64,000 nucleotides of DNA from the NCBI GenBank assembly GCA_963733295.1, contig CAVTCS010000003.1, positions 1,792,001 through 1,856,000 of the forward strand, given 5' to 3'. Positions 18,299 through 50,627 of this stretch are shown piece after piece; within the stretch, counting starts at the first letter, position 1; each line of letters opens with the position of its first letter. A program made the translations under genes and the position numbers. Origin of the DNA: Vulcanimicrobiota bacterium. Lineage in GTDB: Bacteria; Vulcanimicrobiota; Vulcanimicrobiia; Vulcanimicrobiales; Vulcanimicrobiaceae. The notes under the pieces were generated by a model. That model had not been told where the DNA came from. It did no database searches and saw only the letters and a program-made list of their open reading frames with translations.

Positions 18299-18341
18299 CG
18301 CGCAAGCGAAGGCGGCCGCCAGTGCCGCTACGGAAGGCCGG

Positions 18342-21668: not shown

Positions 21669-21671
21669 GCG

Positions 21672-22946: not shown

Positions 22947-23070
22947 CGAAAAACCTCTCTTGGCGGACGCTTGGTCCGGCCTCACTCGGGTACTACGCGG
23001 TTTCGGTCCGATTTGATTCACCGATTCACCCAGGCGGGAGGCCTGGGATTCCCGGAGTATGTGACCCGCC

Positions 23071-23466
23071 ATGGGGGCCAAAGTCGAGCTCGGCCGGCGG
23101 TATCAGAGCCAAACTCGCGTTGAAGAATGGATGACTGCGGAAAAAGCCGGCAACAAAGGGGTCGACGTGCTCTCGACGCCGATGCTGATCCAACTGATCG
23201 AAGCCGCCGCGGTCCAGTGTCTCGCGCCGACCCTCTCGGACGCCGAAGTATCGCTCGGGGCGCACATCGATCTCGCGCACGTCGCGCCGACGCCGGTCGG
23301 CTTGATCGTTCGAACCGAAGTCGAGATCATCGGCGTCGACGGCCGCCGGATTCAGTTCGCGGTGACGGCGTTTGACGAACGCGAGAAGATTGCCGAAGGC
23401 ACGCACGAACGCTACGTCATCGACCGTCCCAAGTTTCTCGCGAACCTCGAAGAGAAACTAAGCTAG
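23071..23466 (+). CDS. Hot-dog-fold thioesterase (fluoroacetyl-CoA thioesterase FlK-like)
   Basis: VLSTPMLIQLIEAAA, HVAPTPVG, GTHERYVI. Confidence 0.85.
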   Translation: MGAKVELGRRYQSQTRVEEWMTAEKAGNKGVDVLSTPMLIQLIEAAAVQCLAPTLSDAEVSLGAHIDLAHVAPTPVGLIVRTEVEIIGVDGRRIQFAVTAFDEREKIAEGTHERYVIDRPKFLANLEEKLS

Positions 23467-25184: not shown

Positions 25185-25227
25185 AAGGGCCCCGTCCTTT
25201 CTCAGAAAGGGCGGGGCTCTTTCGTTT
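25185..25227 (+). terminator. Rho-independent terminator
   Basis: 17-bp stem AAGGGCCCCGTCCTTTC / GAAAGGGCGGGGCTCTT (two G-U pairs), 3-nt loop, followed by TCGTTT. It lies 25 nt after the stop. Confidence 0.75.
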
Positions 25228-25267
25228 GGGTAGGCGCGCGCCGCAGCATCGTCGTAGTTCGCCCGGT

Positions 25268-26563
25268 ATGAAGGCGATACGGTTTCTCGCGTTGGCCTCC
25301 GTTGCATTGCTGGCAATCCCCGGACTCAGGCACCCCGCGCTGGCTCAGACGCCGAGCGGAGATTTCGGCTCCCCGCCATCGGGCGAGGTGCCGCTGCTTT
25401 TCAACGACCGGCACGTCTACGCGAAACCCGACCGTCAGAAATCGAATCGCGTGCTGGCCGCGCTCGTTCGCAACGGAACGATCCTCGTGCCGCTGCGCTC
25501 GATGTTCGAAGCGATGGGCGCGACCGTCACCTACGACGCCGCCACCAAGAGCGTCGACGTCTCGAAGGCCGGTGCCGACGTCAAGCTGACGCTCGACCAA
25601 CCGCAAGTCACGATCAACGGAGAGGTTCGTCCGCTCGACGTCCCGGCGATGATGTATCGCGGCACGATCGTCGTGCCCGTGCGCGTGATCTCCGAAGGGA
25701 TGGGCGCGTACGTCTTGTGGGTCGCCGAGAAACGGCTCGTCGTCGTGCGCTACATTCCGCCCGCGCCGCCGTCGCCGCCGCCGGCCCCACCGCCGCCGCC
25801 GCCGACACCCGCTCCGACGCCGATCGTGACCGCGCCACCGCTGCCCACACCGACGGCACCGCCTCCGCCGAAGAAGCCTTCACCCTACGAGCACTACATC
25901 GTGGGCGACTACCTTATCTCACCCAAGGTGTATAACGAATTCAGTCCCGGCAACACCGGTTCGAACGCGTTCCGTCTGGCGAGCGCGCTCGAGTTTCCGC
26001 TCTTCGGCTTTCCGTGGGAAGTCGGCGAAGATTACCGCGCTTTCTCGTATCCGCACAACGCCGGAGCACCGCCGTCGAGCTGTCCGCAGATCGGAAACCA
26101 AGGCTGCGTAAACGTCATCGGCGGTCAAGGGAAACAGAACTACGTGCCGGCGTTCAGCGCACGCGAAAGCGACGTCGATCTGCAAGTCGGCGCGAAGCTG
26201 GCCGACCCGCGCGTGTATCTCGACTTCGGCTACTTGACCCGTTGGAGCAACTACGGCTATCCGCGTGAAACCGGCATCGGGATCGGGCTCAACAAGCTAC
26301 CGGATCTCGACCACACGTTCTCCACGTACGCGAGCTTCTTCTACTATCCGTCAATCCAAGGCACCTATACCACCGGAAGCGGCGCGTCCGACGTGCTCGA
26401 CTACATCGTGATCAAGTGGGCCGTCGGTGCGACCTTGACGATTCCGAAATTCCCGGTGTATTTGGATGTGGGCTATCTCGGAGAGAACGGAGCGGGACGC
26501 AAGTCCGCGCCCGCGGGTTATTCCTACGCCGGCCCGTACGCGGGGCTCGGCATCCACTTCTAG
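25268..26563 (+). CDS. Paralog of 23877-25160: stalk domain + Pro-rich linker + probable beta-barrel
   Basis: Shares FGSPPSGEVP.L.ND.HVY.KPDR and VPVRVISEGMGAYVLWV; ends GLGIHF. Confidence 0.8.
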   Translation: MKAIRFLALASVALLAIPGLRHPALAQTPSGDFGSPPSGEVPLLFNDRHVYAKPDRQKSNRVLAALVRNGTILVPLRSMFEAMGATVTYDAATKSVDVSKAGADVKLTLDQPQVTINGEVRPLDVPAMMYRGTIVVPVRVISEGMGAYVLWVAEKRLVVVRYIPPAPPSPPPAPPPPPPTPAPTPIVTAPPLPTPTAPPPPKKPSPYEHYIVGDYLISPKVYNEFSPGNTGSNAFRLASALEFPLFGFPWEVGEDYRAFSYPHNAGAPPSSCPQIGNQGCVNVIGGQGKQNYVPAFSARESDVDLQVGAKLADPRVYLDFGYLTRWSNYGYPRETGIGIGLNKLPDLDHTFSTYASFFYYPSIQGTYTTGSGASDVLDYIVIKWAVGATLTIPKFPVYLDVGYLGENGAGRKSAPAGYSYAGPYAGLGIHF

Positions 26564-27498
26564 GGAGACCCTTGCTCCGCGGCGTGGAGCGCTGCCATGA
26601 CGGTCGCGGTCGTGAAGATCCGGCGGTCGTCGCTCGCGATTTCGCTCTGACGAAAGCGGCGGTCTCCAAGTGCGGACGAAAGCGGATCGGTGATCCGCAG
26701 GATGGGGGCGCTGGGCCAACTGCCATCCGCGTTCTGACGGGCCGCGAGGCGCCGTGAGATCGCGCCGCGGCGGGCCGCCCCCATCTCCAAAAGGACGGCA
26801 ATTTCAAGCGCGAGCGCTTCGTGAAAGCATGAGACCCCACTCGAAAGGTCGCAGCGTGAAAGTGCAAAGCGCGGCGCTCCGCCATCCTCCCGCTGCAGCC
26901 GCAAGAGTTCGTTCGCGAGATAGAGCGGTGACGGCCACCAATACGCAGCGGTGCTCGACGTTTCGCGCACGTAGGCGGCGAGCCGCGCGCGGCCCTTCCG
27001 AAGGATCACGTGCCCGGCGGGCAGGACGCCCGACAACGCGCGAAGCGCGACGACGGTCACGTCCGGATGTCCGGCGCACCAGCCGGGCCGGCCTTCGGAG
27101 GCGCGGTACGTTGCGAAATCGCCCGAGTCGAGTTGAAATTTGGCGAGCGCCGCGTAGTCACGGAGCGGTACTTCGTCGCCGATCGCGCGCAAGAAAAGAA
27201 TTGCACGGGCCGTCGAGTCCGCGTCGGGAGCGCAGCGCGTGTTGTAACCCCACCCGCCGCGCGGATCGCGTGCCGCGTTGATGAAGCTGCGCGCGCCGGC
27301 GAGCGCGGGAGCGGCGTCGACGCAACGAAGGGCACCGGCGACGCGAAGCAGGCTCGCGCCGACGTACGCGGTTACCCAGGCTTCGGAGCGGCCGGGTTTC
27401 AGCTGGAAATCACGCCAGGCTCCGTCCGCGTCCTGTGCCGCGACGACAAAGCTCGCGGCGTTCTCGACCGGCTCGTCGAGGGTTAGCGCGCTCTGCAT
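26560..27498 (-). CDS. Prenyltransferase/squalene-cyclase repeat (alpha-alpha barrel) protein
   Basis: QW-like repeats AQDADGAW, RDPRGGWGY, QLDSGDF and RQNADGSWP; PDADST acidic motif. Confidence 0.75.
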   Translation of the reverse strand: MQSALTLDEPVENAASFVVAAQDADGAWRDFQLKPGRSEAWVTAYVGASLLRVAGALRCVDAAPALAGARSFINAARDPRGGWGYNTRCAPDADSTARAILFLRAIGDEVPLRDYAALAKFQLDSGDFATYRASEGRPGWCAGHPDVTVVALRALSGVLPAGHVILRKGRARLAAYVRETSSTAAYWWPSPLYLANELLRLQREDGGAPRFALSRCDLSSGVSCFHEALALEIAVLLEMGAARRGAISRRLAARQNADGSWPSAPILRITDPLSSALGDRRFRQSEIASDDRRIFTTATVMAALHAAEQGSP

Positions 27499-28472
27499 AG
27501 CGTGGAGAGCGCCGCCCCGCTTATACCGACGCGCACCTCGACGCGCCCGCCGGTCGTCGCGCTCACTCCGACGGTGCCGTGATCGGGAAGTTCCGCGACG
27601 GGGACCGAGCCGAGCAAATCGCGGTACGTCGATGCCGGCTTGCCGGCGCTCCGCTCGTGCTCGAGAAAAAACTCGCGAACTCGTCCGACGTTCCCGAGCG
27701 AGCGAGACCGCGCGAACAGCGTCAGCAGCGGTTCTGGGTCGTCCGAAAGCGGCGTGATGCTATAGCCGAAGTTGATCCAGCGAAGAGCGGTGCGGGCCGG
27801 CACGTTGCACAGCGCTACGAACGCTTCAAGCACCGCGCCGCGACGCTCGCTTTGGAAGTGACCTCGCAGCAGCCGGTCGACATCGAGGAGACCGTGCATC
27901 GGCGGCTGGCGGAAATAGTATTCATACGTGCCGGTCCCGCAGTCGTAGCCGAGCATGATCAAGCGACTGTCCGGCGTCATGCGAAAGCGCTCCGCGCCGG
28001 CGGCAGCACCGCTGTTCTCCGGAAGCTCCAGATAGAGCTTGAACCGATCGGCGCGCTCACCTTGGCGGACGCCGAACCAGGCTCCCCAGCGCAGCGCTTT
28101 GCCGGTTTGAAGCGAGTGCCAGAACTCGAGCGCTTCGTGCGGCGGCGTTACGTCACCGAGCAGCCGGCAGAGTTCGACCGCGGCGCCGGCCCGAACGTGC
28201 GCAGCGAGTTCCGGGCCGCCCACTTCGATCGTATACCGTAACCGGTCGTCGCTGCTGGAGAAAGCGAGTTCGACGGGACTGCCATCGCCGTTCAAAGCGC
28301 TGAAATTCCACGCGGCGGCGGGTTGCGTCGATTCTTCGAAGCGCCGCAGACACCGAGCGAGCCCCTGCGCGATCCTCGCGGCTGACGCCGGCGAGCCGCC
28401 GCGAGCGGCCGCACCTCGCGCCGCATCCACGATGGTTCGCGCAGGACTCTCCAGCAGCGCCGTTTCGCTCAA
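27483..28472 (-). CDS. Putative aromatic prenyltransferase-like protein (ABBA/DMATS-like)
   Basis: LNGDGSPVELAFS...LRYTIEV and WFGV...FKLYLE resemble the D-x-[ST]-P-x-E, R-x-x-x-E and K-x-Y elements of DMATS-type enzymes. TTG start overlaps the upstream stop. Family call is tentative. Confidence 0.5.
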   Translation of the reverse strand: MSETALLESPARTIVDAARGAAARGGSPASAARIAQGLARCLRRFEESTQPAAAWNFSALNGDGSPVELAFSSSDDRLRYTIEVGGPELAAHVRAGAAVELCRLLGDVTPPHEALEFWHSLQTGKALRWGAWFGVRQGERADRFKLYLELPENSGAAAGAERFRMTPDSRLIMLGYDCGTGTYEYYFRQPPMHGLLDVDRLLRGHFQSERRGAVLEAFVALCNVPARTALRWINFGYSITPLSDDPEPLLTLFARSRSLGNVGRVREFFLEHERSAGKPASTYRDLLGSVPVAELPDHGTVGVSATTGGRVEVRVGISGAALSTLCRAR

Positions 28473-30739
28473 CTACCGGCGCTCACGAGCACGAGACTAT
28501 CTTGCGCGGTGATGTAGTTGCCTTGGGTTTTCTGGTTGGCATGGTCCAGGAGCGTAATCCGGTACTGATATTGGTTCTGCGTCGGATCGATTACCGGCAC
28601 GTGCACTTGCACCGGTTGGCTCGACCCGTTCATTTGAAACGTCGTCTGGAAGGCGTAGTTGTTGGTGGAGTCTTTGTACGACAGCTCGACGACCGCAAGG
28701 CTGATGGCGTTCGGATCGAAAGCGGGTTGGAACGTCAGGTTGAGGCCCCCGGCGAACGGATCGCTGACGATCAGCGCGCTGGCGGTGGTCGTCGTTGCGG
28801 GGTGGCTGATGAGCGTTCCGTCCTTCAAATAGCAGTTGGTCGAGTAGCTGTAGGTTCGCGCGCTCGTATCGGCGAGCCGCAAATTGAAGCTCTGCGCCGC
28901 CGCGCCCGGCCGCACCACGATCGTCGTCGAGGCTTGCCAGCCACTCGCTGCGGTGTACTGAATCGGGACCTCGATGCGATCGACCGTCCCCGGATCGATC
29001 CGGCCCGGTTGGATGGAGATCTGCAAGAAGCCGAGCGTGTCGAACGGGTCGAGCGTGAGCAAGCGGTTTTCGGTCGTGACGGGCGGCAACGTATACGAAG
29101 TCTTTTCACCTTGCCAGCCCGACTCGGGATCGAACTCGTAGTCGATCGTGTAGGTGTAGCTCGTTTTCTGAATCAGGCCTTCGAAGACCGCCCACGTCTG
29201 TTGCGTCGTGTGCGCCGGATCGAACACAAAATCGCCATGCTTCACGCCCGCGGCACTCGTCGGATCGCCGTAATCGAGGCCGACGTGAGCCGAGAGCAAC
29301 CCGATGCCCGTAAAATCGTGCGGCGGGTTGATCGTCACCGCGAAGTTGTTGAAGAACGGATCGTTCCCGGCAACCTTGAGGAAATGCTTGCTCAGGTCGA
29401 TGTTTGACAGCATCAAACCAAAGTAGCCCTGAGGCGAGTACGTCCGCTGCACCGCGTTCATTTGGTTGTACTCGTACTCGACGGTTTTCAGCTCGTCTTG
29501 TTCGACGAACTTCAGCCGCAGCGCGACGCCGAACGGCGAAGCCGCCGACGACGCCCCGGCAGCGGTACCGGCCGCTTTCGCGATCGCGTTCGCAACGGGC
29601 GCCGCCGCTGCCGCAACAGGTGACGGCGTTGCAGGCTTCGCGGGGGCTGCGGGCTTCGCAGGAGTTGCGGGCGTCGCGGAACCCGAAGGCGGCGCTGCGG
29701 TCATTGTGGTCGCGCCACCCGAAGCGCCTGCGGGAGCACCCATCGACCCCGAGGCCGGTTTTGCCGACGACATGCTCGAGGCACTCGACGGAGTGCTTCC
29801 CCCCATCGTCGTTGTCGGGGGCTTCGCGCTTTGCGCCGACGTCGTGGGCGACGTGCCGGTCGTGCCGTACGGCTTGGCGCCGGTGCTGACCGATTGTGCG
29901 TCGGCAGCTGCCGCCGTCGTCGGGCTCAAACTCGGCGTGAACCACGTCGACATGATCTGATCCTTGAACAAGTTCAGCGCCCACGTTTCGGCGCTCTGCG
30001 TCGCGGCGTCCGAGCTGAGGCTGATGACGTTGATCTGGATGACGCCGTCTTGGCGCAATTTCTCAAAGGTCGCATCGATCCCGGCGGAAACGAAGTACGC
30101 CTGCGCCGTCAGATCGACGCTGAACGACTCGTAGGCGCGCTTGAGATCGCAGGTGATCTTCACGTCGAGCGCCGGCAACACGCCGGTGAATTGCAGGTTG
30201 TAGATCCCGCCGACCGGCGTCATGCCGTCTTGAAAGGCTTGTTCGAGAATCGTCGCGCCTTCTTCGGTCAGCGTCAATCCGAACACCGCGTCGTTGTTGC
30301 CGAAGAGCTCGGGGCTGCTCGCGCCTAGGATGCGCTCCACGGCCTGCCCCGTGCCGGCCGGCGCGGCGCCGGCACTCGTACCGCCGGCACCCTGCAGATC
30401 GAGTGCGACGATTTGGACGGTGCCCGAGTCGAACGAGACCGGCGCGAGCTTCGGAGTGTCGACGTTCGGGAATTGGTTTCGAATCTGTCCGATGATCTGC
30501 GTCTGCGTATCGTCGCTGACTTTGAGGGCCAGCGTCACGTTGAGAAAGCCGCTGCCTTGTATGCCGGTGCCGGCGACGTCGGGCGCGTACATGATCAACA
30601 AGAACTGCGGTTCGTCGCTGCCGCTCTCAGACTCGAGGCCGACGGGACCTGGAAGATACCAAAACTGACTCGGATCGGCGTGATCCGGGAACACCGTGAT
30701 GCCGTTGACGGTAAAGGTGTCGCTCGAGAATAAAAGCAT
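28469..30739 (-). CDS. Large uncharacterised paralog A (shared N-domain, long Ala/Ser/Thr/Pro insert, 3 C-terminal beta repeats)
   Basis: 756 aa, no signal peptide. TVFPDHADPSQFWYLP...GFLNVTL...PELFGNNDAVFGLTLTEEGATIL aligns by eye with paralogs B and C. Confidence 0.85.
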   Translation of the reverse strand: MLLFSSDTFTVNGITVFPDHADPSQFWYLPGPVGLESESGSDEPQFLLIMYAPDVAGTGIQGSGFLNVTLALKVSDDTQTQIIGQIRNQFPNVDTPKLAPVSFDSGTVQIVALDLQGAGGTSAGAAPAGTGQAVERILGASSPELFGNNDAVFGLTLTEEGATILEQAFQDGMTPVGGIYNLQFTGVLPALDVKITCDLKRAYESFSVDLTAQAYFVSAGIDATFEKLRQDGVIQINVISLSSDAATQSAETWALNLFKDQIMSTWFTPSLSPTTAAAADAQSVSTGAKPYGTTGTSPTTSAQSAKPPTTTMGGSTPSSASSMSSAKPASGSMGAPAGASGGATTMTAAPPSGSATPATPAKPAAPAKPATPSPVAAAAAPVANAIAKAAGTAAGASSAASPFGVALRLKFVEQDELKTVEYEYNQMNAVQRTYSPQGYFGLMLSNIDLSKHFLKVAGNDPFFNNFAVTINPPHDFTGIGLLSAHVGLDYGDPTSAAGVKHGDFVFDPAHTTQQTWAVFEGLIQKTSYTYTIDYEFDPESGWQGEKTSYTLPPVTTENRLLTLDPFDTLGFLQISIQPGRIDPGTVDRIEVPIQYTAASGWQASTTIVVRPGAAAQSFNLRLADTSARTYSYSTNCYLKDGTLISHPATTTTASALIVSDPFAGGLNLTFQPAFDPNAISLAVVELSYKDSTNNYAFQTTFQMNGSSQPVQVHVPVIDPTQNQYQYRITLLDHANQKTQGNYITAQDSLVLVSAGS

Positions 30740-30769
30740 GGCGTTCTCAATGCTCCCGCGGGAGGCGGC

Positions 30770-33112
30770 TTAGGAGAGATTGTTGAGAGGAATGACTAGC
30801 GCGTTGCCGGCGATCGGCGTCCAGTCGATGCTCTTCGTCTGACCGTTCGTCAGTTGGATGTCGGCGCGGTATTGCGGCGCCACGTTCGGATCGACGTAGT
30901 CGTACGCAAAGCTGCGCACGTCGGCAGCGGTCGCAAGGGTGACCGACTCGCTGAGGTCGATCGCATTTGTCGCGTCGACGTAGCGAATGCCGACCACGAT
31001 CTGACCGATCTGGCTCGCCGTGAAGTCGACCTGCTGCGGCGCGATCGAAAGGATCTGATGTCCTTTCATGTTGTTCTGCAGCATCAGGTACTGATCCGAG
31101 GTCACCGATCCCGGAATGGTCCAGATTTGACCGTTCGTGTGGACGAGCTGCGCTTCGTAGTAGATCAGGTTCTGCGTTGGATCTTGCCGGTCGACGGTGA
31201 AAGGCGGCGCCGCCGCGTTGCTCGCGGTCAAGGTGTAGGTCTGTTGAACTGCGGGATTGCTCTTGCTGGGGTAAGCCACGAAAACCAGCGCCTCCTGAAA
31301 TTGGGTCCAGTCGAGCGCGGCGATCACATTGAGCGTGAGCTTTGAGGGGAACGGATCGACGACGTCGATCTTCGAGGCGCTGGTCGTAACCCACGGCGAG
31401 ACGCTCGTCCCGCCGGAGACGAGGCTGTAGGTCAAGCGGTACTGGAAGCTGCGCAGGCTCGGATCGCACATGAAGAGGGGCCAATCGACTTCGGGATTGG
31501 CGCTCGTCATGATCGCGCTCGGCTGCTCGTTGATGGCATTCTTCGCGTCGACGTAGCGGCACTCGACCTCGACGCTGGGATAGCGGTCCCAGGGAAAGCC
31601 GAACGCGCGAACCGGAATGACGGTCACGCCGTAGACGTCGCCCCGCGGCTCGATGTCGAGCACGTCGCCGGTAACCGTTTGCGGCGCGCTCGTGAGTTTG
31701 TTGGGCCGCTGGGTCGTATCGACGTTCATGAAGTTGACGGTGTAGGTGTAGCTCACCGGGCGCTGCATCTGGCCGTTCGAGAGCACGCTGCTCCAGTTAC
31801 AAGAACCTTGCGAGGCCGCGCCGGTCAACGAGACCGACTGAACGCTGCCGTTGTAGGTGAGGTTCACGTCGATCGAGGCGATCGAATCGCCGGCGAAGTC
31901 GGCGTGCGTGACCACGTTGACCGTGCGGCGCTGAAAATACGGATTGTCGAGATCGACCTTGACGACGAACTGCCCCAGGCCCGTTCCCGGTTTGAGTTCG
32001 CTGAGAAGACCGTTGAGATGGCCTTGGGGAAAGATCGTGCGCAGGACCGCGGTCTGCTCGGTCAGGTTGAAATCGAGGGACTTCTGATCGGTTTGCGAGA
32101 GGTCGATGTGCTTGTAGGAGTAACCCGCTTGACCCAACGGACCGGCCAGCGCGATGTCGCTGAGGTTCTTGACGGTGCTCGTGAACTTGTCCCAATCGTC
32201 GGGCTTATTGGGATCCGGCGGCGCCAGGCTCGACTGAAAGAAATTGTTCTTGACCAGCTCGTAGCATTCCGAGACAGCCCGGTCGCGGTCCGAGACGCCG
32301 GTTGCTCCCAGATCCGAATCTGTCGTGTACGACGAAACCTGGATGTTGATGACCTGATCCTCGATCAGCTTATCGACCGTCTTCTCGATGTCGCTCGAGA
32401 CAAAGAGAAAACCGCCACCGTATTGAGTATCGAGATAAGTCTGCACGCGGTTCCAGTCGGCGGTGAGTTGAACGTGAAAGGCAGGCCGCAGGCCCAGGAA
32501 TTGCAGCGAATAGATGACGGCGACCGGCGCCATCTCACCCTGCAGCGCCGCTTCGAGAACCGTCGCGCCGTATTGGTCGAGCTGGACGGAGAAGGTCGCT
32601 TGATTGTCGCCGTAGAGCGCGGGCTTCGTCGCGTTCTGCACTTTGATCACGAATTGCGGCCCGGACGCGGCCGGCGCCATCACCGCCGTCGCGGCTGCGC
32701 CGCTACTCGCGCCGGCCGGTCCGCCGGACGGCGCCGCCGCACCGCCCGTGGCCGGCGGACTTGCGCTTTGCGCTCCGAGGATCAGCAGGTCGACCGAACC
32801 ATCGACGAACGTCACCGGCGAGAGCCGCGGTTGCCCGGTCAGCTTCGCCTGCTGCTGGAGTTGACTGCTCACTTCGCTCAGCGCGTCCTGATCGATCCCG
32901 ATGTTGACGTCGAAATTGAGGAATCCGCCGGTTCCGGCAGCTCCCTCGTACTCGATCAGTTGCAGCTGTGGCGTGGCGACGTTCGTCTTCGGGTCGGTCA
33001 CCATCGTCAGGTGCGGCATCATCGGGAGGTAGTAGAACTGCAACGGATCTTTGTCGTCGGGGAAGACCGAGACTCCGTTGATCACAAAATACGGCGAGTT
33101 GAGGTACAGCAT
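30770..33112 (-). CDS. Large uncharacterised paralog B (shared N-domain, 4 C-terminal beta repeats)
   Basis: 780 aa. SVFPDDKDPLQFYYLP...GGFLNFDV...PALYGDNQATFSVQLDQYGATVL. Confidence 0.85.
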   Translation of the reverse strand: MLYLNSPYFVINGVSVFPDDKDPLQFYYLPMMPHLTMVTDPKTNVATPQLQLIEYEGAAGTGGFLNFDVNIGIDQDALSEVSSQLQQQAKLTGQPRLSPVTFVDGSVDLLILGAQSASPPATGGAAAPSGGPAGASSGAAATAVMAPAASGPQFVIKVQNATKPALYGDNQATFSVQLDQYGATVLEAALQGEMAPVAVIYSLQFLGLRPAFHVQLTADWNRVQTYLDTQYGGGFLFVSSDIEKTVDKLIEDQVINIQVSSYTTDSDLGATGVSDRDRAVSECYELVKNNFFQSSLAPPDPNKPDDWDKFTSTVKNLSDIALAGPLGQAGYSYKHIDLSQTDQKSLDFNLTEQTAVLRTIFPQGHLNGLLSELKPGTGLGQFVVKVDLDNPYFQRRTVNVVTHADFAGDSIASIDVNLTYNGSVQSVSLTGAASQGSCNWSSVLSNGQMQRPVSYTYTVNFMNVDTTQRPNKLTSAPQTVTGDVLDIEPRGDVYGVTVIPVRAFGFPWDRYPSVEVECRYVDAKNAINEQPSAIMTSANPEVDWPLFMCDPSLRSFQYRLTYSLVSGGTSVSPWVTTSASKIDVVDPFPSKLTLNVIAALDWTQFQEALVFVAYPSKSNPAVQQTYTLTASNAAAPPFTVDRQDPTQNLIYYEAQLVHTNGQIWTIPGSVTSDQYLMLQNNMKGHQILSIAPQQVDFTASQIGQIVVGIRYVDATNAIDLSESVTLATAADVRSFAYDYVDPNVAPQYRADIQLTNGQTKSIDWTPIAGNALVIPLNNLS

Positions 33113-33138
33113 AACGGTGCTCCGATCGCGAGCGGCGC

Positions 33139-35436: not shown

Positions 35437-35451
35437 GTCGTCTCCTTAGAG

Positions 35452-37290: not shown

Positions 37291-39405
37291 CTACGAGCCG
37301 GCCTGCACGTAAAACGAATCCTGATTCGAGGTGACCGGAGTGCCTTGCGTCGTTCCGGCACCGGTGATGACGTCGACGCGGTACGTGTAGTTCGACGTAT
37401 CGCCGGACTGCAGTACGTACGCTTCGACCGGCACCGAAAGCGAGATCGTCTGCGTCATCACGCCGTTCACGGCCGGAATCGACGGGTCGAAGTTCGCGGT
37501 TTGTCCGTCGGCGAAGACGACCTGCACCGCCATGATCGGCGGCGACGTGGCCGGCGCGGGAGCGCTGCTCGCCGCAGGAGCGGTGCCGGCGCCTACCGGC
37601 GCGGCGGTTGCGGCCGCAGCGAAGACCGAACTGAAGAGGATGACTTTGATGTCGCGCTTGACCGGTGCAACGACCTGGTTCTGCATGATCGCTTCCCAAA
37701 TCGCAGCCGGATCCGGCTCGACCTGAGTGTTGCTGTAGTCGAACTGCACCGAACACGAGCTGTCGATCGCCTGTCCCGCAGCCAGCTGCATGACGATCGT
37801 CAACGTATCCGGCGCGGGCGCGGCGCTCCCCGACGCGGCCGGTGCGCTTGAGACCGGCTTCAGATCGAGCGGCGGCGCAGGCTTGGTCTGTTGGGTCACG
37901 CTCGTCACCGGCACGCCGCCTTTGAGCAGCACGGCGGGCAAAGCGTCAACGTGAATCGGGCTCTCGATGCCGTTCTCCAGAACGACGGTCAGTTGGTTCT
38001 TGAGCGGATCGAACGAGGTCGTCGAGGCGAAGATGTCGCCGGCAAAATCGGAAGCGCTCGACTCGAACGGAATCTGTTCGACGTCCGAGCCGACCGTCAC
38101 GCTCACGACGCCGGAGAGCAGCTGCGTGACCTTTTCGAACAGCGCGGCGTAGACTTGACGGAACTGTGCCATCGAGAGCGCGAGCGAACACTTGATGCCG
38201 GCGGCGATGTCGATCTGAGCGCCGGCTTGCGCGACGAGGCCGGGCGCAGCCGACGGGTCGCTCGGAGGCACCGTCAGCGAAAGCGCCGTCGTGGTCGCTT
38301 CGAATAGACTGAGCGTGGGAAGCGCCGCCAGCCCGAGCGTCGTCTGAAGCGATTGCGCGGCGGCAGTCAGCCGGTTGGGGTCCCACACGGGAACCGCAAG
38401 AAAGGTCAGCGTGAAGGTGAGCGAGTTCGGATCGTCGCCGTTGGTGCTGACGACGATGCTCGGCGCGTGGGGCGGGGCGGGTTGCCGGCTGATCTTGAAC
38501 GAGTCCGGCAAGAAATATATCTGATTCGGTTGGTTGAGGTCTTGATAGTACGGATAGGAGCGCCCTTGCCAGCTGACTTGCTGGATGTTCCAGGATGGCG
38601 CTCCGCTTCCGATGTCGCTCAAACCGGCAAACACGTTCTTGTCGAGCACCGGATCGAAGCTGAACGGCAGCGTCGAATCGATGGCCGTGACCGCGGCACG
38701 ATAGAGCGGCTGCGCCGGCGGCGGCCCGGATGCCGGCGGAGGCACGGGAGTCGCCACACTGAACGAACGCCGCAGAATTAGTTTCGCTTGCGCCGCTTGA
38801 TCGGTCATCGCGTGATAGATCTGATCGCGGACCGCGGGATCGGTGACGACGAGCGAGAGGACGAGGTCGCCGGCCTCAGTCGTAGCCGTCCCGAAATCCC
38901 AGCTAGCGGCTTGTCCTTGCAGGTTCGCCGTCAACATGTAGCGTGTCGCGCTCGGAACGATCGCCGCGTTCCCTTGCGCGAGCGTCGTGGGACTGACGTC
39001 GGCGAGGTGTACCATCAGCGTGAAGCCCGCGGCGGTGGGCGCGAAGGTGACCCAGCGCTGCGAGGAGCCGCCGCTGCCTCGGGTCGCGACCGCGTACTGC
39101 TGCAGATAGTGTTTCTTCGTCGCGTCTTGCGGCTCTTCGAAAAGCGTCGAATCGACGGGCGGCGCGACGGGTGAAATCAAAGTCGGCAGCGCGAAACCGC
39201 TGCGCGGCTGCGGCGTGCCGAGGAACCACCCGAAGGACGGGTTGCGCATGTAGATGAGCGAGGGATTGAACGTGCTGCGCGTGGCCGAGGTCGCAACCGC
39301 GGTCGGAAACATCACGGGCCGCATAACGGCAGTCGGCGCCGTCACCGGCGCGGCTTGGGTAACCGGCCGTGGCGCGAACGTATGAAGCGTCATGAAGTTC
39401 GGCAT
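37291..39405 (-). CDS. Large uncharacterised protein E, first gene of the operon, with an apparently duplicated N-domain
   Basis: About 704 aa from ATG at 39405 (start uncertain). TLFEEPQDATKKHYL and PYYQDLNQPNQIYFLP both resemble the family N-terminal motif; C-terminal NYTYRVDV repeat. Confidence 0.75.
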   Translation of the reverse strand: MPNFMTLHTFAPRPVTQAAPVTAPTAVMRPVMFPTAVATSATRSTFNPSLIYMRNPSFGWFLGTPQPRSGFALPTLISPVAPPVDSTLFEEPQDATKKHYLQQYAVATRGSGGSSQRWVTFAPTAAGFTLMVHLADVSPTTLAQGNAAIVPSATRYMLTANLQGQAASWDFGTATTEAGDLVLSLVVTDPAVRDQIYHAMTDQAAQAKLILRRSFSVATPVPPPASGPPPAQPLYRAAVTAIDSTLPFSFDPVLDKNVFAGLSDIGSGAPSWNIQQVSWQGRSYPYYQDLNQPNQIYFLPDSFKISRQPAPPHAPSIVVSTNGDDPNSLTFTLTFLAVPVWDPNRLTAAAQSLQTTLGLAALPTLSLFEATTTALSLTVPPSDPSAAPGLVAQAGAQIDIAAGIKCSLALSMAQFRQVYAALFEKVTQLLSGVVSVTVGSDVEQIPFESSASDFAGDIFASTTSFDPLKNQLTVVLENGIESPIHVDALPAVLLKGGVPVTSVTQQTKPAPPLDLKPVSSAPAASGSAAPAPDTLTIVMQLAAGQAIDSSCSVQFDYSNTQVEPDPAAIWEAIMQNQVVAPVKRDIKVILFSSVFAAAATAAPVGAGTAPAASSAPAPATSPPIMAVQVVFADGQTANFDPSIPAVNGVMTQTISLSVPVEAYVLQSGDTSNYTYRVDVITGAGTTQGTPVTSNQDSFYVQAGS

Positions 39406-39858
39406 GCTCAGTACCGCCCGTGGGCCATGTTCTGCCTCCGAGATTCGAGGAAGGACTGCTTCTGGGGTGATGCTAGGCGACGGGGCGTCCTCAAAACGTC
39501 CCGCAGCAAACAGCGCGACTGCGGCAGCATTGCCGGTCCCGCAACTTGAATTTGCGCCGATCGAAAATCCGGCCTTATCAGGAATCGCACACTTGCCTGA
39601 GGCGCACTCATGCGGAACGCCTGACGCGGATGTTGCAAGTGTTGACGGCGGATGTGATCTGGAACACAATTTTGCGCGACCACGCGCAGTAGGGCATCCG
39701 TCGCGGCGGGGTACTTCGTGAGAAAGCGCCGCGCGCGAAGTCGCACGCGGCGGGCGTTTTTAAATAGGCCGAGAGTGCAGCTCGTCCGACGTGCTCCTCG
39801 ATTGCGTGATCGCGCCTTGCGAGTCCGAAAGCGCGTGCAGCGATCCTAGCGCAGCATT

Positions 39859-39902
39859 GTCAAGGAATGGTGAAGAGATCGTCAAGGAATTTTCAACGTC
39901 GC
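39859..39902. promoter_or_regulatory. 11-bp-period direct repeats in the divergent intergenic region
   Basis: GTCAAGGAATG (39859), GTGAAGAGATC (39870), GTCAAGGAATT (39881) and weaker TTCAACGTCGC (39892). Confidence 0.45.
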
Positions 39903-40010
39903 TTTCGCGCGCGTGTTTCCGCTTGGAATGAATGCGAGCAAGCGACGAAACGGCGAGGACGTTTTCAGGACACTTGCGGTGTAGGATGAGCGGGCAGGAG
40001 GTAAACCGCA

Positions 40011-40574
40011 ATGGCTTTATTGAGCGTCGCTCAAGTTGCTGCCAAGGGCGCACAGCAGCGCCCGGACTTTAAGATTTCGTGGCGCCCGGCGCTAGCCGCG
40101 TATGCGGCACAATATACGGCTGCAGCGAAGGCAACCGATCTCGTGCAGCCGTGCATGCTGGCCGCGATCGTCTGCCGGGAAACCGGCGGACAGAATATTT
40201 TGCAGATCGGCATGCCGCCCGGCGCCGGCTGCGGGGTCGGCTTGACCCAGATTACGAGCGGCGTCGACTGGAGCGTCTCGAGCGCTCCAACCTATCCGGG
40301 CTACGGACCGCTGCTCGACCCGCAAACGAACCTTAAGGTCTGCGCGGTCGAGTTTCTCGAACCGCTTCTCAACATGTTTTCCGACAATCACATCGCGGCA
40401 TTTGCCGCGTACAACGTCGGTGCGGGCAACGTGCAAGAGGAGCTCAAGGAAGGGGTCAGTCCCGACGCCTGGACGACGGGGCACGACTATGGGACGTCGG
40501 TCTTCGAGTCGTGGATCAACTTCACCGCGGCCTCGTGCGGCGACAACGTCGACTGGGCCAGCTACAAACCCTAA
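40011..40574 (+). CDS. GH23 goose-type lysozyme / lytic transglycosylase, copy 1
   Basis: AAIVCRETGG catalytic Glu, GLTQI, AAYNVG and TTGHDY motifs; RBS AGGAGG; no signal peptide. Confidence 0.85.
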   Translation: MALLSVAQVAAKGAQQRPDFKISWRPALAAYAAQYTAAAKATDLVQPCMLAAIVCRETGGQNILQIGMPPGAGCGVGLTQITSGVDWSVSSAPTYPGYGPLLDPQTNLKVCAVEFLEPLLNMFSDNHIAAFAAYNVGAGNVQEELKEGVSPDAWTTGHDYGTSVFESWINFTAASCGDNVDWASYKP

Positions 40575-40588
40575 TCCCGGAGGTCGGC

Positions 40589-41530
40589 ATGACCGGACAG
40601 ATCGGAAGCATTCTCGACGCCGCGCTCGTCCTCTCCGCGCTCTTTGTCGCCCTGAGTTGCGTTTGCTCGTTCGTCAACGAGCAGATCGCCGCGCTCTTGA
40701 GTTGGCGCGGACAAAAGCTCTACCTCGGCATCTTGAATTTGGTGAGCGGGACGGTGCCGCTGGTCGACGCCGTTTTTGCACATCCCTTGCTCGATGCCTC
40801 GTCAAACGACAAGAGCGGAATCTACCGCAAGAACTCGCCCAACCGGCCGTCCTACGTCGACGCGCGCAATTTTTCGATGGCCTTCTGGCAGAGCGTGCTC
40901 GCGGGCAAAGCCGCCCTGCCTGCCGGCTCGCCGGCTGTGGGCGCGGCCGCGACGGCCATCGTTACCGAGCCCAAAGTGTTTCTCGATGCGGTCCGCCAGA
41001 ACGCCCAAGCGATTCCCGACGAATCGCTACGGGCCAGCGTCTCCTCGCTGCTCGTTACCGCCGGCGACGACTACGAGAAGTTGCTCAAGGCCACCGATGC
41101 GTGGTTCAACGCCCAGATGGATCGCGTCTCGGGCTGGTACCGCCGGCAAACCCAGTACGTGCTGATCGGCATCGCCGCGATCGTGGTCATCGGCACGGGG
41201 CTGGACAGCATCGAGATCGGCAAGCATCTCTACGCCACGCCGATTGCGCTCAGCGCGGCCGCCGCGTCGATTCAGGGCGCCTTCCCGAACGGACAAGCCG
41301 ATCCGGCGAAACTGCAAGCGGCCTACACGACGGTGCTGGCGGGTGAAAACATGCAGCAGTTCCTTCACCCGCTCTTCCAAGATTTCGGCACGCACTATCC
41401 CGGCATGATCGCAACGTTAATCGCGCTTTCGCTGGGAACGCCGTTCTGGTTCGACGCACTGGGCAAACTCGTCAACGTCCGGATGGCCGGCGCCAAGCCG
41501 CCCTCCGCCCCTTCCTCTTCATCGACATAA
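40589..41530 (+). CDS. Conserved hypothetical membrane protein (3 hydrophobic segments)
   Basis: RBS GGAGG; N-terminal TM; PSYVDARNF, WFNAQMDRVSGWYRR and LGTPFWFDALGKL. Confidence 0.8.
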   Translation: MTGQIGSILDAALVLSALFVALSCVCSFVNEQIAALLSWRGQKLYLGILNLVSGTVPLVDAVFAHPLLDASSNDKSGIYRKNSPNRPSYVDARNFSMAFWQSVLAGKAALPAGSPAVGAAATAIVTEPKVFLDAVRQNAQAIPDESLRASVSSLLVTAGDDYEKLLKATDAWFNAQMDRVSGWYRRQTQYVLIGIAAIVVIGTGLDSIEIGKHLYATPIALSAAAASIQGAFPNGQADPAKLQAAYTTVLAGENMQQFLHPLFQDFGTHYPGMIATLIALSLGTPFWFDALGKLVNVRMAGAKPPSAPSSSST

Positions 41531-41547
41531 CGTCAAGGAGAACAACG

Positions 41548-42333
41548 ATGGCTCTTTTAGAAGGTTCGGGCGACGGCAGTTCCGTCGACGCCGGCACGAC
41601 TGATCCCGGTCCGAGCGACGGTGGCGCCGTCGCCGGAACGACGACCACAACGGTAGCGACCGACGGATCGAGCGACGCGGGTTCGAGCGACACGAGTTCG
41701 AGCGACGCGTCGACCACCACGCCGAGCGATGCGGGTTCCACCGACGCGTCGACCGCCACGACAAGCGACGCGGGTACGCCGGCGGCGCCCCCGATCGACT
41801 ATTCGGTCATGGTCGCGATTCCAACCGGCATCAACGACGGGCTCAGCTCGGCAGATCAGGCCACGATGCTGAACGCGCTGGGAAATCCGGGAACGCCGGA
41901 TCCTGGCTGCGGGCCGTCCTCCGCGGCACTGCAAAAACTCATGAAGACCGCGAGCGTTGGGCCGTTCCGCGTCACCGGGCTCGGCCCCGCAGTCGACGCG
42001 CTCACCCGCGTCTTCGCTGCCGTGCAGAGCGCCGAACCCGCGCTCTACAACCTGCTCGGAACGCAAGGTATGCTGTGCGTGCGCTACGTGCGCGGCTCGA
42101 CGACGAACTTCTCGAATCACTCGTGGGGAACCGCGATCGATCTCACGATCGGCGGCGTGCTCACACCGCGCGGCTCGACGACCGTCTCGCAAGGGCTGCT
42201 CAGCCTGTGTCCGTACATGCACGCCGAGCAGTTCTTCTGGGGCGCGGGCTTTAGTCCGACGCCCGACGGCATGCACTACGAAGCGTCGAACGAGCTCATC
42301 ACGCAGTGGAAAGCGAACGGGAGCATTCCATGA
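41548..42333 (+). CDS. M15-family Zn peptidase (peptidoglycan peptidase) with Ser/Thr/Asp-rich N-terminus
   Basis: CVRYVRG...SNHSWGTAIDL and DGMHYE motifs; the first ~80 aa are low complexity. Confidence 0.85.
   Translation: MALLEGSGDGSSVDAGTTDPGPSDGGAVAGTTTTTVATDGSSDAGSSDTSSSDASTTTPSDAGSTDASTATTSDAGTPAAPPIDYSVMVAIPTGINDGLSSADQATMLNALGNPGTPDPGCGPSSAALQKLMKTASVGPFRVTGLGPAVDALTRVFAAVQSAEPALYNLLGTQGMLCVRYVRGSTTNFSNHSWGTAIDLTIGGVLTPRGSTTVSQGLLSLCPYMHAEQFFWGAGFSPTPDGMHYEASNELITQWKANGSIP
41668..41775 (+). repeat. Degenerate coding tandem repeats ([TC]CG AGC GAC GCG/ACG; S-D-A/T units)
   Basis: Repeated GAGCGAC units are visible in the sequence and encode SSDAGSSDTSSSDAS. Confidence 0.6.
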
Positions 42334-43484
42334 GCGCGGACGAAACCGTCGCGAGCGACGGCGGCGTAACAACCGACACTTCCCCGAGCGACACGTCGAT
42401 ACAAGACGCCGGCGCGGCGGACCCATCCGGCGCACCGGTTTCGAGTTCGAGCGACGCCGCGTCGAGCGACGCGACGTCGAGCGACACGAGCACGAGCGAC
42501 ACGACAACCGATGCGCCGAGCGGCACACCCTCCGCAACGGCGACGATCGGCGGCTGGAGCGACGCGGTTGCGGGCGGCTGGAACGGCGCCGAACGCGGCG
42601 TCGGCAACGTGCGCCGCATTCCGCTCCAAGGGCTCAAACAAGTCAATCAGGATCCCGCGCCCAATCCCGCGACGGCCGAATCGGCGGCCGGTCGCGCCAT
42701 CCTGATCGTCCCGGCCTCGCTCGATGCGTCGCAACCGGTCGACGTGCTCTTACATCTGCACGGGCACAACATCGGCTACCGGCAGCGCGTCGCATCCAAT
42801 CTGCCCGATGCGGCCAGCGTGCGCGACGTGCTCGTCGATCAGATCGAAGATCAACTCGACCGGTCGGGGCGCGCGATGATCGCCGTGCTGCCGCAAGGCA
42901 CGCTCGTCTCCGGCTTCGCACCGAGCGGCGCTCTGTTCGACTGCGACTCGTTTCTCGATGAGGTCCTGAGCGCAGCGGTCACGGCGGGCGTGTGGTCCGC
43001 GGCGCCGACGGTTGCGCGCGTCGTGCTTTCCGGGCACAGCGGCGGCGGCAACACGATCGGGCCGATGGCGGGCCAGTCCGGGCAGCCACGCCTCCCCTCG
43101 AAGATCGAGGCGATGTTTCTGTTCGAGGCGATCAACGGAACAAACGAGCTGGCGGGGATCACGACCTACGTCACCCAAAAGCTCAATGCCGATCTAGCGG
43201 CTTTGGGAAGCGCCTCCGATCAGCTTGACTACCTCAAATCGAGCTTCCGTTTCCGCGGTGTGTACAACACGCAGGACGACTTCTACGCAACCAACTACGC
43301 GACGCTGACGCAAACGATCGCGGCGTGGTTCGCCAAGAACGCGGCTGCGCTCGGCGGAAAAGGCTCGGATGCCTACAACGCGTTCGCAGCGAACTACGTC
43401 GTCGTCAACCCGAACCCGTTCGTCGTTCACGACGGCCTCTTGGGCTCCGGGAACTTGCTCCTCGCCTTAGGGACGCTGCCATGA
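42330..43484 (+). CDS. Alpha/beta hydrolase-fold protein with Ser/Thr/Asp-rich N-terminus
   Basis: ATGA overlap with the M15 gene; VLLHLHGH and SGHSGGG nucleophile elbow; the first ~70 aa are low complexity. Confidence 0.75.
   Translation: MSADETVASDGGVTTDTSPSDTSIQDAGAADPSGAPVSSSSDAASSDATSSDTSTSDTTTDAPSGTPSATATIGGWSDAVAGGWNGAERGVGNVRRIPLQGLKQVNQDPAPNPATAESAAGRAILIVPASLDASQPVDVLLHLHGHNIGYRQRVASNLPDAASVRDVLVDQIEDQLDRSGRAMIAVLPQGTLVSGFAPSGALFDCDSFLDEVLSAAVTAGVWSAAPTVARVVLSGHSGGGNTIGPMAGQSGQPRLPSKIEAMFLFEAINGTNELAGITTYVTQKLNADLAALGSASDQLDYLKSSFRFRGVYNTQDDFYATNYATLTQTIAAWFAKNAAALGGKGSDAYNAFAANYVVVNPNPFVVHDGLLGSGNLLLALGTLP
42440..42510 (+). repeat. Degenerate coding tandem repeats, ~15-nt period (TCGAGCGACGCGACG-like)
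   Basis: TCGAGCGACGCCGCG TCGAGCGACGCGACG TCGAGCGACACGAGC ACGAGCGACACGACA, encoding SSDAA SSDAT SSDTS TSDTT. Confidence 0.7.
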
Positions 43485-43831
43485 GCGTGCAATCGACCCA
43501 GACTAGTGTCGAGATCGAATGGGACGACAGCGTCGTCATCATCTTCTCCTTTGCCGGTGCTGACGGCAAGATCTATTGCGGTTTTCCGCACGTCGTGCCG
43601 GCGTGGCAGAATCAGACCGGAACTCAGACGCAAGTCTCGGCAACCGTGCAGAAAATTCAGCAATCCGCGATGCAGATCAGCGGCGACCCAGGGACATGGG
43701 TCGAGACGGTCAAGCAAGGCGCCAGAAACGGAAAGATCACCGTCGTCTACGACGATTCGACCAACACGAACTACACGACGCAGACCGGGCAGCCATACCA
43801 GCTGCAGATCTTGTACAGTCTCACCGGTTGA
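43481..43831 (+). CDS. Small hypothetical protein (116 aa), last gene of the lysozyme operon
   Basis: ATGA overlap with the upstream stop; protein-like composition; followed by the palindrome ACGGGCCGGCCCGT. Confidence 0.7.
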   Translation: MSVQSTQTSVEIEWDDSVVIIFSFAGADGKIYCGFPHVVPAWQNQTGTQTQVSATVQKIQQSAMQISGDPGTWVETVKQGARNGKITVVYDDSTNTNYTTQTGQPYQLQILYSLTG

Positions 43832-43866
43832 CCCCCACGGGCCGGCCCGTTTCGACGCGCCGCTAA

Positions 43867-50073: not shown

Positions 50074-50526
50074 TTAGATGCCGGCGGGTGCCCGAGACGC
50101 GTCCGCCAAGGTCAAGGCCTTATCGCTTCGACGCGCAAGTTCGGTGAATCTTGGATTCCGTTCGACGTTGAACGAGAACTTATAGCCGAAACGTCGTAGC
50201 GTGTGCAAAAATGGTCCGCATTTTACGTCCTCCTCGATTTTCATCCGCAGGCGACGGATGTGAACATCTAATGTACGGTCACCTCCCTCGAAATCATATC
50301 CCCAAACTAGATCGAGAAGACGCTCGCGCGACATGGCTACACCAGCGTTCGAAGCGAGCGCGACCAACAGGGAAAACTCGCGCGGTTTGAGTTGAATCGC
50401 TTGACCTAACACGCGAACCTCTCTGGCTATTTCATCGATTTCGAGCGGTCCAAACTGCATAAGGAGTTGCGCGCTGTTTCGTTCAGGGCACGTCGGTAGT
50501 GACGGACGCATCAGGTATCGCTCCAT
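50074..50526 (-). CDS. Stand-alone OmpR/PhoB-type winged-helix DNA-binding protein (no receiver domain)
   Basis: LKPREFSLLVAL...SRERLLDLVWGYDF..DRTLDVHIRRLRMKIE...TLRRFGYKF; only ~25 aa precede the domain. Confidence 0.85.
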   Translation of the reverse strand: MERYLMRPSLPTCPERNSAQLLMQFGPLEIDEIAREVRVLGQAIQLKPREFSLLVALASNAGVAMSRERLLDLVWGYDFEGGDRTLDVHIRRLRMKIEEDVKCGPFLHTLRRFGYKFSFNVERNPRFTELARRSDKALTLADASRAPAGI

Positions 50527-50574
50527 TCTAGTCGCTTATTGAGTCGTTGACGACATGATCGATCGACGAATAAA

Positions 50575-50619: not shown

Positions 50620-50627
50620 CGGAGACT

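Follow-up and report, generated by a model that had tools for sequence, protein, structure and literature searches.

A 64,000-nucleotide (nt) stretch from the genome of a Vulcanimicrobiota soil bacterium (GenBank assembly GCA_963733295.1, contig CAVTCS010000003.1, positions 1,792,001–1,856,000; hereafter the window) carries an operon in which 5 paralogous large proteins, A–E, are followed by a predicted aromatic prenyltransferase (PT) and a predicted terpene cyclase. The large core family, which many phyla share, is nameless and lacks both a domain model and a solved relative. The recurrence of this gene order in dozens of unrelated genomes places the locus pattern far beyond chance. We tentatively suggest, while rating the idea well below an even chance, that A–E form a lipid-anchored hetero-oligomer that would attack the membrane of the cell producing it, as part of a regulated programme of death or lysis.

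The operon is a minus-strand run of 7 tightly packed genes (26560–39405) that faces a plus-strand operon of 5 genes (40011–43831). The open reading frame (ORF) listing and its translation confirmed the positions and strands given in the initial annotation of the window. By window position, the 7 genes are as follows:

26560–27498, minus strand: terpene cyclase (QW, initially called the "QW repeat" gene), 312 amino acids (aa); predicted monodomain class II enzyme of the MstE type.
27483–28472, minus strand: PT, 329 aa; predicted distant DMATS/ABBA-type aromatic prenyltransferase; 16-nt overlap with QW.
28469–30739, minus strand: paralog A, 756 aa; 4-nt overlap with PT; N-terminal domain with a long Pro/Ala/Ser/Thr-rich insert.
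30770–33112, minus strand: paralog B, 780 aa; 30-nt gap to A; family-specific N-terminal domain (residues 1–390) and 4 predicted β-sandwich domains (residues 390–780).
33139–35436, minus strand: paralog C, 765 aa; 26-nt gap to B.
35452–37290, minus strand: paralog D, 612 aa; 15-nt gap to C; distant paralog.
37291–39405, minus strand: paralog E, ~704 aa; stop codon abutting the start of D; unique N-terminal region, then the shared FYYLP domain.

All 7 genes have a third-position GC content of 0.76–0.85, which marks them as coding. The likeliest start of E is the ATG at 39405 (704 aa), and its frame is open up to a TTG at 39669. Since A–E measure 612–790 aa, they are large rather than giant, so that of the "five-paralog giant-protein operon" initially proposed, the 5 paralogs stand and the size term does not. 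A hydrophobicity scan revealed no signal-peptide-like N-terminus in A–E or in 3 enzymes of the facing operon (SLT, M15 and HYD, listed below), as had been claimed. A–E also show no membrane-helix pattern; C (residues 470–488) and E (residues 674–694) each have one hydrophobic 19-residue window, and both windows lie within folded regions.

A–E are true paralogs, as judged from direct alignment for A, B and C and from profile comparison for D and E. In the MAFFT alignment, B and C are 32% and 22% identical to A, respectively, and the 3 proteins share a common N-terminus with the motif FPD..DP.QFYYLP. The D family profile aligned with the B family profile over 467 columns (hhalign probability 96%, E 2.9e-9), and the E profile aligned with the A/B/C N-terminal profile over 95 columns including the FYYLP motif (hhalign probability 86%, E 5.4e-6). 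This N-terminal module is located at residues 372–467 of E, after a unique region of ~370 residues. None of the 5 proteins matched Pfam, NCBIfam, PADLOC or PHROGs, and the profiles of the B, D and E families gave only chance-level matches against PDB sequences (mnemiopsin, 0.033; SARM1 TIR, 0.047; nothing below 0.6 for the E family). The alignments and these searches bear out the earlier proposal that A–E are paralogs of an undescribed family. The literature likewise yielded no description of the operon or the family in a search that left out most subscription papers and supplements. Among 8,000 candidates scored, 355 proteins were homologs of B at E ≤0.001, and each of the 120 B homologs listed carries the source name "hypothetical protein" and no recorded Pfam domain. 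An exhaustive profile search with the A/B/C N-terminal domain retrieved 2,476 clusters at 50% identity, of which 1,710 were found at 1e-10 and 612 at 1e-30.

Single, far more distant relatives of the N-terminal domain (E ~1e-16 to 1e-17) occur in 3 genomes of the same bacterial family (G085:C7:927083-928180, G109:C1:509305-510348 and G133:C3:313431-314504); their open frames of 747–795 aa may represent a stand-alone form. A distant array on plasmid p2 of Pararhizobium qamdonense (L081 1-14487) comprises 7 consecutive "hypothetical protein" genes, one of which is 27% identical to B, and has no PT.

Relatives are encoded in 126 stretches of species-representative genomes; 80 loci, many of them cut by contig ends, were kept (individual loci carry L numbers). 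By record title, these span Eremiobacterota, Acidobacteriota, Alpha-, Beta- and Gammaproteobacteria, Verrucomicrobiota, Bacteroidota, Cyanobacteria, Bacillota, Actinomycetota, Nitrospirota, Gemmatimonadota, Myxococcota, Chloroflexota and Desulfobacterota, and 2 metagenome-assembled genomes (MAGs) labelled Methanosarcinales carry the system as well (L040 and L041). When the window proteins were used in tblastn, A, B and C were each found in 80/80 loci, D in 56/80, E in 53/80, PT in 50/80 and QW in 7/80. The order E-D-C-B-A on one strand, first described in the window, recurs in 44 of the 47 loci that have all 5 paralogs, the 3 exceptions being assignment artefacts. PT lies directly after A, as the last gene, in every one of the 35 loci that have both the 5 paralogs and PT. 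The fixed order of so many paralogs suggests a defined hetero-oligomeric machine.

Within its own phylum the system is rare: 4 of 151 sampled genomes have it, including the source genome with its one copy, and at least 3 matches were found only in G000 and G085. No match to the system was found in 50,697 phage records; 3 large plasmid records matched, in which all members are called "hypothetical protein" by PGAP. We conclude that the system is an accessory, horizontally spread module. These data bear directly on the reading in which A–E would be a structural or housekeeping assembly, such as an intracellular scaffold, cage or envelope layer, with incidental neighbouring enzymes. Fixed-order multi-paralog complexes are indeed typical of structural machines, and the proteins are soluble and rich in β-sandwich domains. 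Against this, only 2 of the 151 genomes hold the full set, the patchy spread over many phyla is unlike that of a housekeeping structure, and the accessory enzymes described below recur too regularly to be incidental; we consider such a role very unlikely.

The AlphaFold2 (AF2) model of B has a mean predicted local distance difference test (pLDDT) score of 78.9 and a predicted template modelling (pTM) score of 0.42; the C-terminal half reaches a pLDDT of ~90 and is modelled as 4 confident β-sandwich domains (residues ~390–780). A family-specific N-terminal domain is present in each of A–E. In the B model it is a β-sandwich core into which a large segment is inserted, made up of long strands, helices and 2 disordered loops; the second loop is expanded to long low-complexity stretches in A and C. 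In Foldseek, full-length B gave generic Ig/FN3/MG β-sandwich matches (top E 1.4e-10, template modelling (TM) score 0.07–0.12), and the top rows were adhesin repeats, LILRB3 and α-2-macroglobulin-type proteins with TM <0.25; its best VIA Z was 7.8 (2yjl_A, root-mean-square deviation (RMSD) 4.1, 94 aligned). For the N-terminal domain model, Foldseek returned no match at E ≤0.001 with the exception of one in BFVD, and the best Z values, which concern the β-sandwich core, were 5.8 (6dg5_B, RMSD 3.2, 95 aligned) and 6.2 (5z1b_A, RMSD 4.0, 107 aligned). As these Z values are within the tool's range for models without a true match, the modelled fold of the family-defining domain appears to match nothing solved. 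The top score in the ESM Atlas was 0.76, which is below the useful range.

The BFVD entry, A0A7S7YF07, is an uncharacterised protein of Medusavirus stheno T3 and is the only Foldseek match of the N-terminal model below 0.001 in any library (E 6.6e-6, 245 columns, TM 0.28/0.27).

Residues 1–390 of B and 1–400 of C were modelled as a complex, each chain with its own alignment, together with 3 controls. The complex scored 0.70, 0.73 and 0.70, compared with 0.00 for the best control; the alignments were our own, and a paralog that is a cousin of the true partner can also reach such a score. At least 33% of the contacts were common between runs, and the pLDDT of the partner was at least 71. In calibration, the mark for this score was reached by 116 of 157 solved complexes and by 2 of 215 mismatched pairs. 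The modelled face of B is formed by residues 4–17, 108–115, 181–200 and 351–371, and includes P362-Q363-G364-H365, invariant in the B orthologs (G364 nearly so); the modelled face of C is formed by residues 23–61, 70–78, 109–116 and 140–156, includes the invariant P143 and G147, and adjoins the invariant G68 and G69. The model favours a head-to-tail association of these two N-terminal domains, each through a different face. Because the paralogs share both interface faces, a single hetero-oligomeric chain or ring of A–E is possible, and the initial suggestion that A–E assemble into a hetero-oligomer gains support from this B/C model.

PT is assigned, from its profile matches, as a distant DMATS/ABBA aromatic prenyltransferase. 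A profile of 30 PT orthologs matched the CymD prenyltransferase (7.4e-5), Trp dimethylallyltransferase 4yzj (1.6e-4) and further DMATS chains; Pfam Trp_DMAT was found in 8 of the 30 orthologs (best E 2e-5), and the window's own PT had no match in Pfam, NCBIfam, PADLOC or PHROGs. Residues K145, Y147, E184 and Y186 are invariant in the family, and E68, R79, R136, Y283 and H298 are near-invariant. These conserved residues may correspond to the basic and aromatic diphosphate site of ABBA enzymes.

The QW gene, by the same kind of evidence, is an MstE-type monodomain class II terpene cyclase and not a second prenyltransferase. It matches Pfam SQHop_cyclase_N (1.2e-7), and the family profile matches PDB 8paj (7.8e-36, query residues 15–317), 8pak, the "prenylcyclase" 6ij1 (1.7e-24) and MstE 6sbb (2.4e-23). 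D92 and D94 of the DxD motif are invariant in 7/7 members, and the motif PDADSTA aligns to ADADSTA of 8paj. Of the initially proposed "prenyltransferase pair", the aromatic prenyltransferase thus holds on the DMATS profile matches, and its companion is replaced by a predicted cyclase. In 20 other loci the same place after PT is occupied by a family, here called X, in which DADDTA is invariant in 11/11 members; hhalign relates it to the QW family (probability 92%, E 6.2e-7), and against the PDB it gave a motif-level match only (5bp8, E 0.15).

Of the loci, 59 extend at least 2.5 kb past their last large paralog. Among these, PT is present in 48, PT together with a cyclase-like gene in 27, and a cyclase without PT in none; the co-occurrence of PT with the paralogs that the initial annotation had supposed is supported in these 48 loci, and PT is absent from 11. 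According to PMC12414744, MstE is a β-only cyclase that uses DxD and its clade spans many phyla. PMC13290415 describes NctPC as an ABBA prenyltransferase domain joined to an MstE-like cyclase domain, which geranylgeranylates a Trp of a ribosomal peptide and then cyclises the chain (PMC13290415, on Hubrich et al., Chem 2024). Since the second gene encodes a predicted terpene cyclase, the downstream pair would be a prenylate-then-cyclise couple.

To describe variation of the operon, all ORFs of the 80 loci and the window were clustered, and selected ORFs were searched against Pfam. Most lineages outside Eremiobacterota have an extra short paralog between D and C with an FLYVP-type N-terminus, which the window lacks; 9 of the 10 examined had no hydrophobic segment, and the one in L058 had a borderline segment. 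A sixth large paralog is present in loci of Lysobacterales, Hydrogenophaga and Nitrospira. Three unrelated protease families occur in or adjoining the operon in ~24 of the 80 loci. A caspase (Peptidase_C14) gene lies inside the operon in 15 loci (checked with Pfam in L016, L029 and L049), and a further 8 loci have a trypsin-like or subtilase gene within the operon or adjoining it, with the trypsin-like protease inside the operon in L022, L034 and L043 and the subtilase directly upstream in L008, L010, L013, L034 and L045. Caspase genes were found in 13 of the 59 loci defined above (9 with PT and 4 without), and 7 of the 59 have neither PT nor caspase. An M48 peptidase gene occurs in L058 only, a patatin takes the place of PT in L008, a Peptidase_S74 gene lies downstream in L032, and a signal-less muramidase unrelated to the window hydrolases lies directly upstream in the Bacteroidota locus L016. 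Signal peptides are absent from most of the accessory caspases, trypsin-like proteases, subtilases, patatin and muramidase. In L018 (15205-20210, Leptolyngbya sp. AN10), gp25, Baseplate_J, Tail_P2_I and DUF4159 genes directly follow A on the same strand, in the place of PT; they may reflect a link to a contractile-injection-type baseplate or a chance adjacency.

The region upstream of E and the facing operon in the window are as follows:

39406–40010, no strand: divergent intergenic region, 605 nt, given an E start at 39405 and an SLT start at 40011.
40011–40574, plus strand: SLT, 187 aa; predicted SLT-type lytic transglycosylase (Pfam SLT 3.9e-9; PHROG endolysin 7.7e-4).
40589–41530, plus strand: membrane protein (MEM), 313 aa; 3–4 hydrophobic segments; ATG start with GGAGG upstream; holin-like by position only.
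41548–42333, plus strand: predicted M15 peptidase (M15), 261 aa; Peptidase_M15_4 9.9e-9 (Pfam); acidic Ser/Thr-rich N-terminus.
42330–43484, plus strand: HYD, a possible serine hydrolase with a GHSGGG motif and no family match.
43481–43831, plus strand: small protein (SM), 116 aa; no Pfam match.

The 605-nt spacer contains no convincing small gene and no Rfam family; its 2 promoter-like hexamer pairs are not above the count in shuffled sequence, and a terminator scan was likewise no better than shuffles. The membrane protein, with its 3–4 hydrophobic segments, had no holin or other match in Pfam, NCBIfam, PHROGs or PADLOC. HYD had no match in Pfam, NCBIfam, PADLOC, PHROGs or the PDB, and SM had none in Pfam, NCBIfam, PADLOC or PHROGs. 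A second SLT transglycosylase gene in the window (57839–58399, minus strand) is 81% identical to that of the operon (149/184 residues) and adjoins a Peptidase_S8 subtilase gene (55889–57742, minus strand). This subtilase was considered and rejected, because the subtilases flanking the system in other genomes are not its orthologs.

The facing operon is linked to the system only in Eremiobacterota relatives, at 4 loci (L001, L002, L003 and L006), despite rearrangement. In L001, the cyclase gene is directly followed by M15 and HYD on its own strand. In L006, all the genes share one strand, with SM ahead of E and with SLT, M15 and HYD directly behind the cyclase. In L002 and L003, the neighbour of E is the membrane-protein gene, and SM is found downstream. 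The supposition that the lysozyme, M15 and membrane-protein neighbours recur across genomes gained no general support: tblastn found SLT in 1, M15 in 2, HYD in 2, MEM in 2 and SM in 3 of the 80 loci, all of them in Eremiobacterota relatives. Linkage to signal-less wall hydrolases, the L016 muramidase included, is recurrent but confined to a minority.

These neighbours are nevertheless central to a second reading, in which A–E would make up a hetero-oligomeric particle directed at other cells, be it a toxin, a pore or an adhesive complex. The holin-like protein and the signal-less hydrolases would release it by opening the producer's envelope, in the manner of type 10 secretion or a lysis cassette, and the terpenoid would help it to bind its target membrane. 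The SLT, membrane-protein and M15 genes beside the window operon, their linkage in the 4 related loci and the muramidase in L016 agree with it. So do the 4 β-sandwich domains of the modelled subunit, with their weak likeness to adhesin repeats and MG domains and to the membrane-binding domain of pneumolysin (Z 6.8, RMSD 3.2, 87 aligned), and the B/C hetero-oligomer model, which passed its mark. The gp25, Baseplate_J and Tail_P2_I genes after A in L018 and the Peptidase_S74 gene in L032 fit as well, as does the fact that the hosts of the system include predatory or lytic genera, such as Lysobacter, and MAGs of Myxococcaceae and Saprospiraceae. On the other side, each hydrolase gene is found in at most 3 of the 80 loci; the Methanosarcinales-labelled MAGs and monoderms carry the system without such a cassette; a lipid attached in the cytoplasm would encounter and bind the membrane of the producer before any other; and the accessory proteases have no signal peptides. 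There is also no match to a Tc toxin, extracellular contractile injection system (eCIS) or type VI secretion system (T6SS) family. Because the components, accessory proteases included, lack signal peptides and most loci lack a wall hydrolase, we do not favour extracellular release; the initial idea of a particle freed by wall hydrolysis survives as a possibility that we hold to be doubtful.

We prefer, tentatively, action on the producer's own membrane. PT and the cyclase would attach an oligoprenyl group to an aromatic residue and then cyclise it, as NctPC does on a peptide Trp, and the acceptor would be a subunit of the complex. Acting as a sterol-like anchor, the cyclised prenyl group would hold the complex to the membrane of the producing cell, on its inner face, and the anchored A–E assembly would breach this membrane. 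Lysis would then be completed, in the window's lineage, by the linked signal-less SLT and M15 together with the membrane protein; elsewhere, the complex would be processed or activated by cytoplasmic proteases of the caspase, trypsin or subtilase type. The cell would undergo regulated death or lysis, for defence or for the release of its contents. We rank this possibility above the extracellular particle for the following reasons: (i) all parts are cytoplasmic; (ii) a lipidation in the cytoplasm meets the cell's own membrane first; (iii) the protease families resemble those of bacterial gasdermin operons; and (iv) most hosts, including monoderms and the archaeal-labelled MAGs, have no hydrolase at all.

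Several results weigh against it. PT is absent from 11 of the 59 loci, and lipidation is therefore not essential to the core. The search for a prenyl acceptor was negative: no Trp in A–E is conserved in the PT-bearing loci yet lost in the 9–11 PT-lacking ones, and across the same PT-lacking loci no Tyr, Phe, His or Cys in B–D and no Tyr in A or E tracks the presence of PT. In PADLOC-DB 2.0, 0 of 10 locus proteins matched a defence model (E ≤0.01); no sensor or NTPase is present; defence-type neighbours are isolated, namely SIR2-TIR downstream in L016 and PLD in L055; and the window's own operon has no protease gene. The N-terminal domain folded alone gave a moderate model (pLDDT 66.2), and among the matches listed for it there was no MACPF/CDC, gasdermin, aerolysin, Tc or other pore-former chain, which, with a model of pLDDT 66, is not evidence of absence. 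The cousin effect noted for the B/C score counts here too. In addition, β-sandwich arrays are more typical of extracellular binding proteins.

The lack of a tracking acceptor residue and the persistence of the core without PT would both follow if PT and the cyclase made a free meroterpenoid or indole terpenoid, or modified an unlinked peptide, and A–E were a separate complex that uses, binds, carries or is regulated by the product with no covalent lipidation. Small molecules are the substrates of MstE and of most DMATS enzymes, as PDB names and PMC12414744 indicate. This arrangement is harder to reconcile with the place of PT, which is always directly after the last paralog (35/35), and with the conserved gene set, in which no prenyl diphosphate synthase, tailoring enzyme or exporter was seen. 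Nor was a conserved precursor ORF found: among 1,059 small ORFs in the flanks of the operons, no cluster reached more than 5 loci, and those 5 were all of Lysobacter. Since conservation of small ORFs near the operon stops at a single genus, a classical precursor peptide is disfavoured. We regard a free product as unlikely. The probability left by these readings and the structural one belongs to explanations outside them.

A bolder form of the membrane-attack reading, which we think improbable, is that A–E form a ring in which one subunit is covalently tagged on an aromatic side chain with a cyclised C15–C20 isoprenoid, which would drive the ring into the membrane as a very large pore executing regulated cell death in bacteria and possibly archaea. 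If true, a folded protein, and not a short peptide, would for the first time carry a lipid anchor resembling a sterol or hopanoid. More generally, the regular association of the system with a prenylate-then-cyclise pair may point to a new kind of protein lipidation, by a chemistry so far known only on ribosomal peptides. The question is directly testable because culturable, tractable hosts carry the operon, among them Lysobacter enzymogenes, Paenibacillus and Microbacterium.

The remainder of the window contains further groups of genes. Two genes in tandem on the plus strand (23877–25160 and 25226–26563) encode paralogs with 49% identity, in which a Cu_amine_oxidN1 domain is accompanied by a proline-rich linker and a C-terminal part without assignment; the second gene converges on the end of the cyclase gene with a 4-nt overlap. 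An 873-aa regulator (50074–53249, minus strand), which adjoins a Trans_reg_C protein, contains TPR repeats and a LuxR (GerE) domain in addition to a STAND/AAA-like ATPase; the GC content of the 50–54 kb stretch is 0.53–0.56, ~10 points below the rest of the window. Three tandem SBP_bac_5 solute-binding paralogs (15054–19982, minus strand) lie beside a cytochrome c gene, and OEP and HlyD-type efflux genes lie at 20079–23081.

Structural and genetic parallels can be drawn with 5 known systems. Tc toxins and multi-component pore-forming toxins likewise have several large subunits in one operon, β-sandwich domains and no classical secretion signal. Tc toxins differ in having distinct A, B and C classes, whereas A–E are paralogs of one new family without a sequence match. 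None of the 12–15 proteins of the locus has a Pfam or NCBIfam match to TcA/TcB/RHS or to sheath, tube or baseplate families, and L018 is the only locus with adjacent baseplate genes. The initial statement that the architecture matches no T6SS, eCIS or Tc system agrees with the same two databases, in which no such part was found in the window.

Type 10 secretion is the holin/endolysin-dependent release of proteins, exemplified by Serratia ChiWXYZ. The window resembles it in placing a signal-less lysozyme-like enzyme, an M15 peptidase and a membrane protein beside signal-less large proteins, and the signal-less peptidoglycan hydrolases themselves are present (SLT and Peptidase_M15_4, neither with a hydrophobic N-terminal segment). 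It differs in that the window membrane protein has no holin-family match and the cassette is linked only in Eremiobacterota relatives.

Bacterial gasdermin operons encode signal-less, lipid-modified effectors beside caspase-like, trypsin-like or subtilase proteases, and are sporadic and horizontally spread. The present system shares the signal-less proteins, the adjoining caspase-like, trypsin-like or subtilase genes (in other loci) and the sporadic distribution. By contrast, A–E are 3 times larger and comprise 5 or more paralogs, the lipid enzymes are of terpenoid rather than acyl type, and no protease adjoins the window's operon.

Further parallels are with terpenoid enzymes. Like MstE (merosterolic acid synthase, 6sbb), the window cyclase is predicted to be a single β-domain enzyme of ~310–365 aa with a DxD acid motif (profile E 2.4e-23); MstE cyclises a prenylated benzoate in a small-molecule pathway, whereas the window cyclase lies beside a DMATS-like PT in a protein-complex operon. 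NctPC shares the pairing of an ABBA-fold prenyltransferase with an MstE-like monodomain class II cyclase. It is, however, one fused protein that acts on a precursor peptide, whereas the predicted PT and cyclase of the window are encoded by separate genes overlapping by 16 nt, and their operon partners are 5 folded proteins of 600–790 aa.

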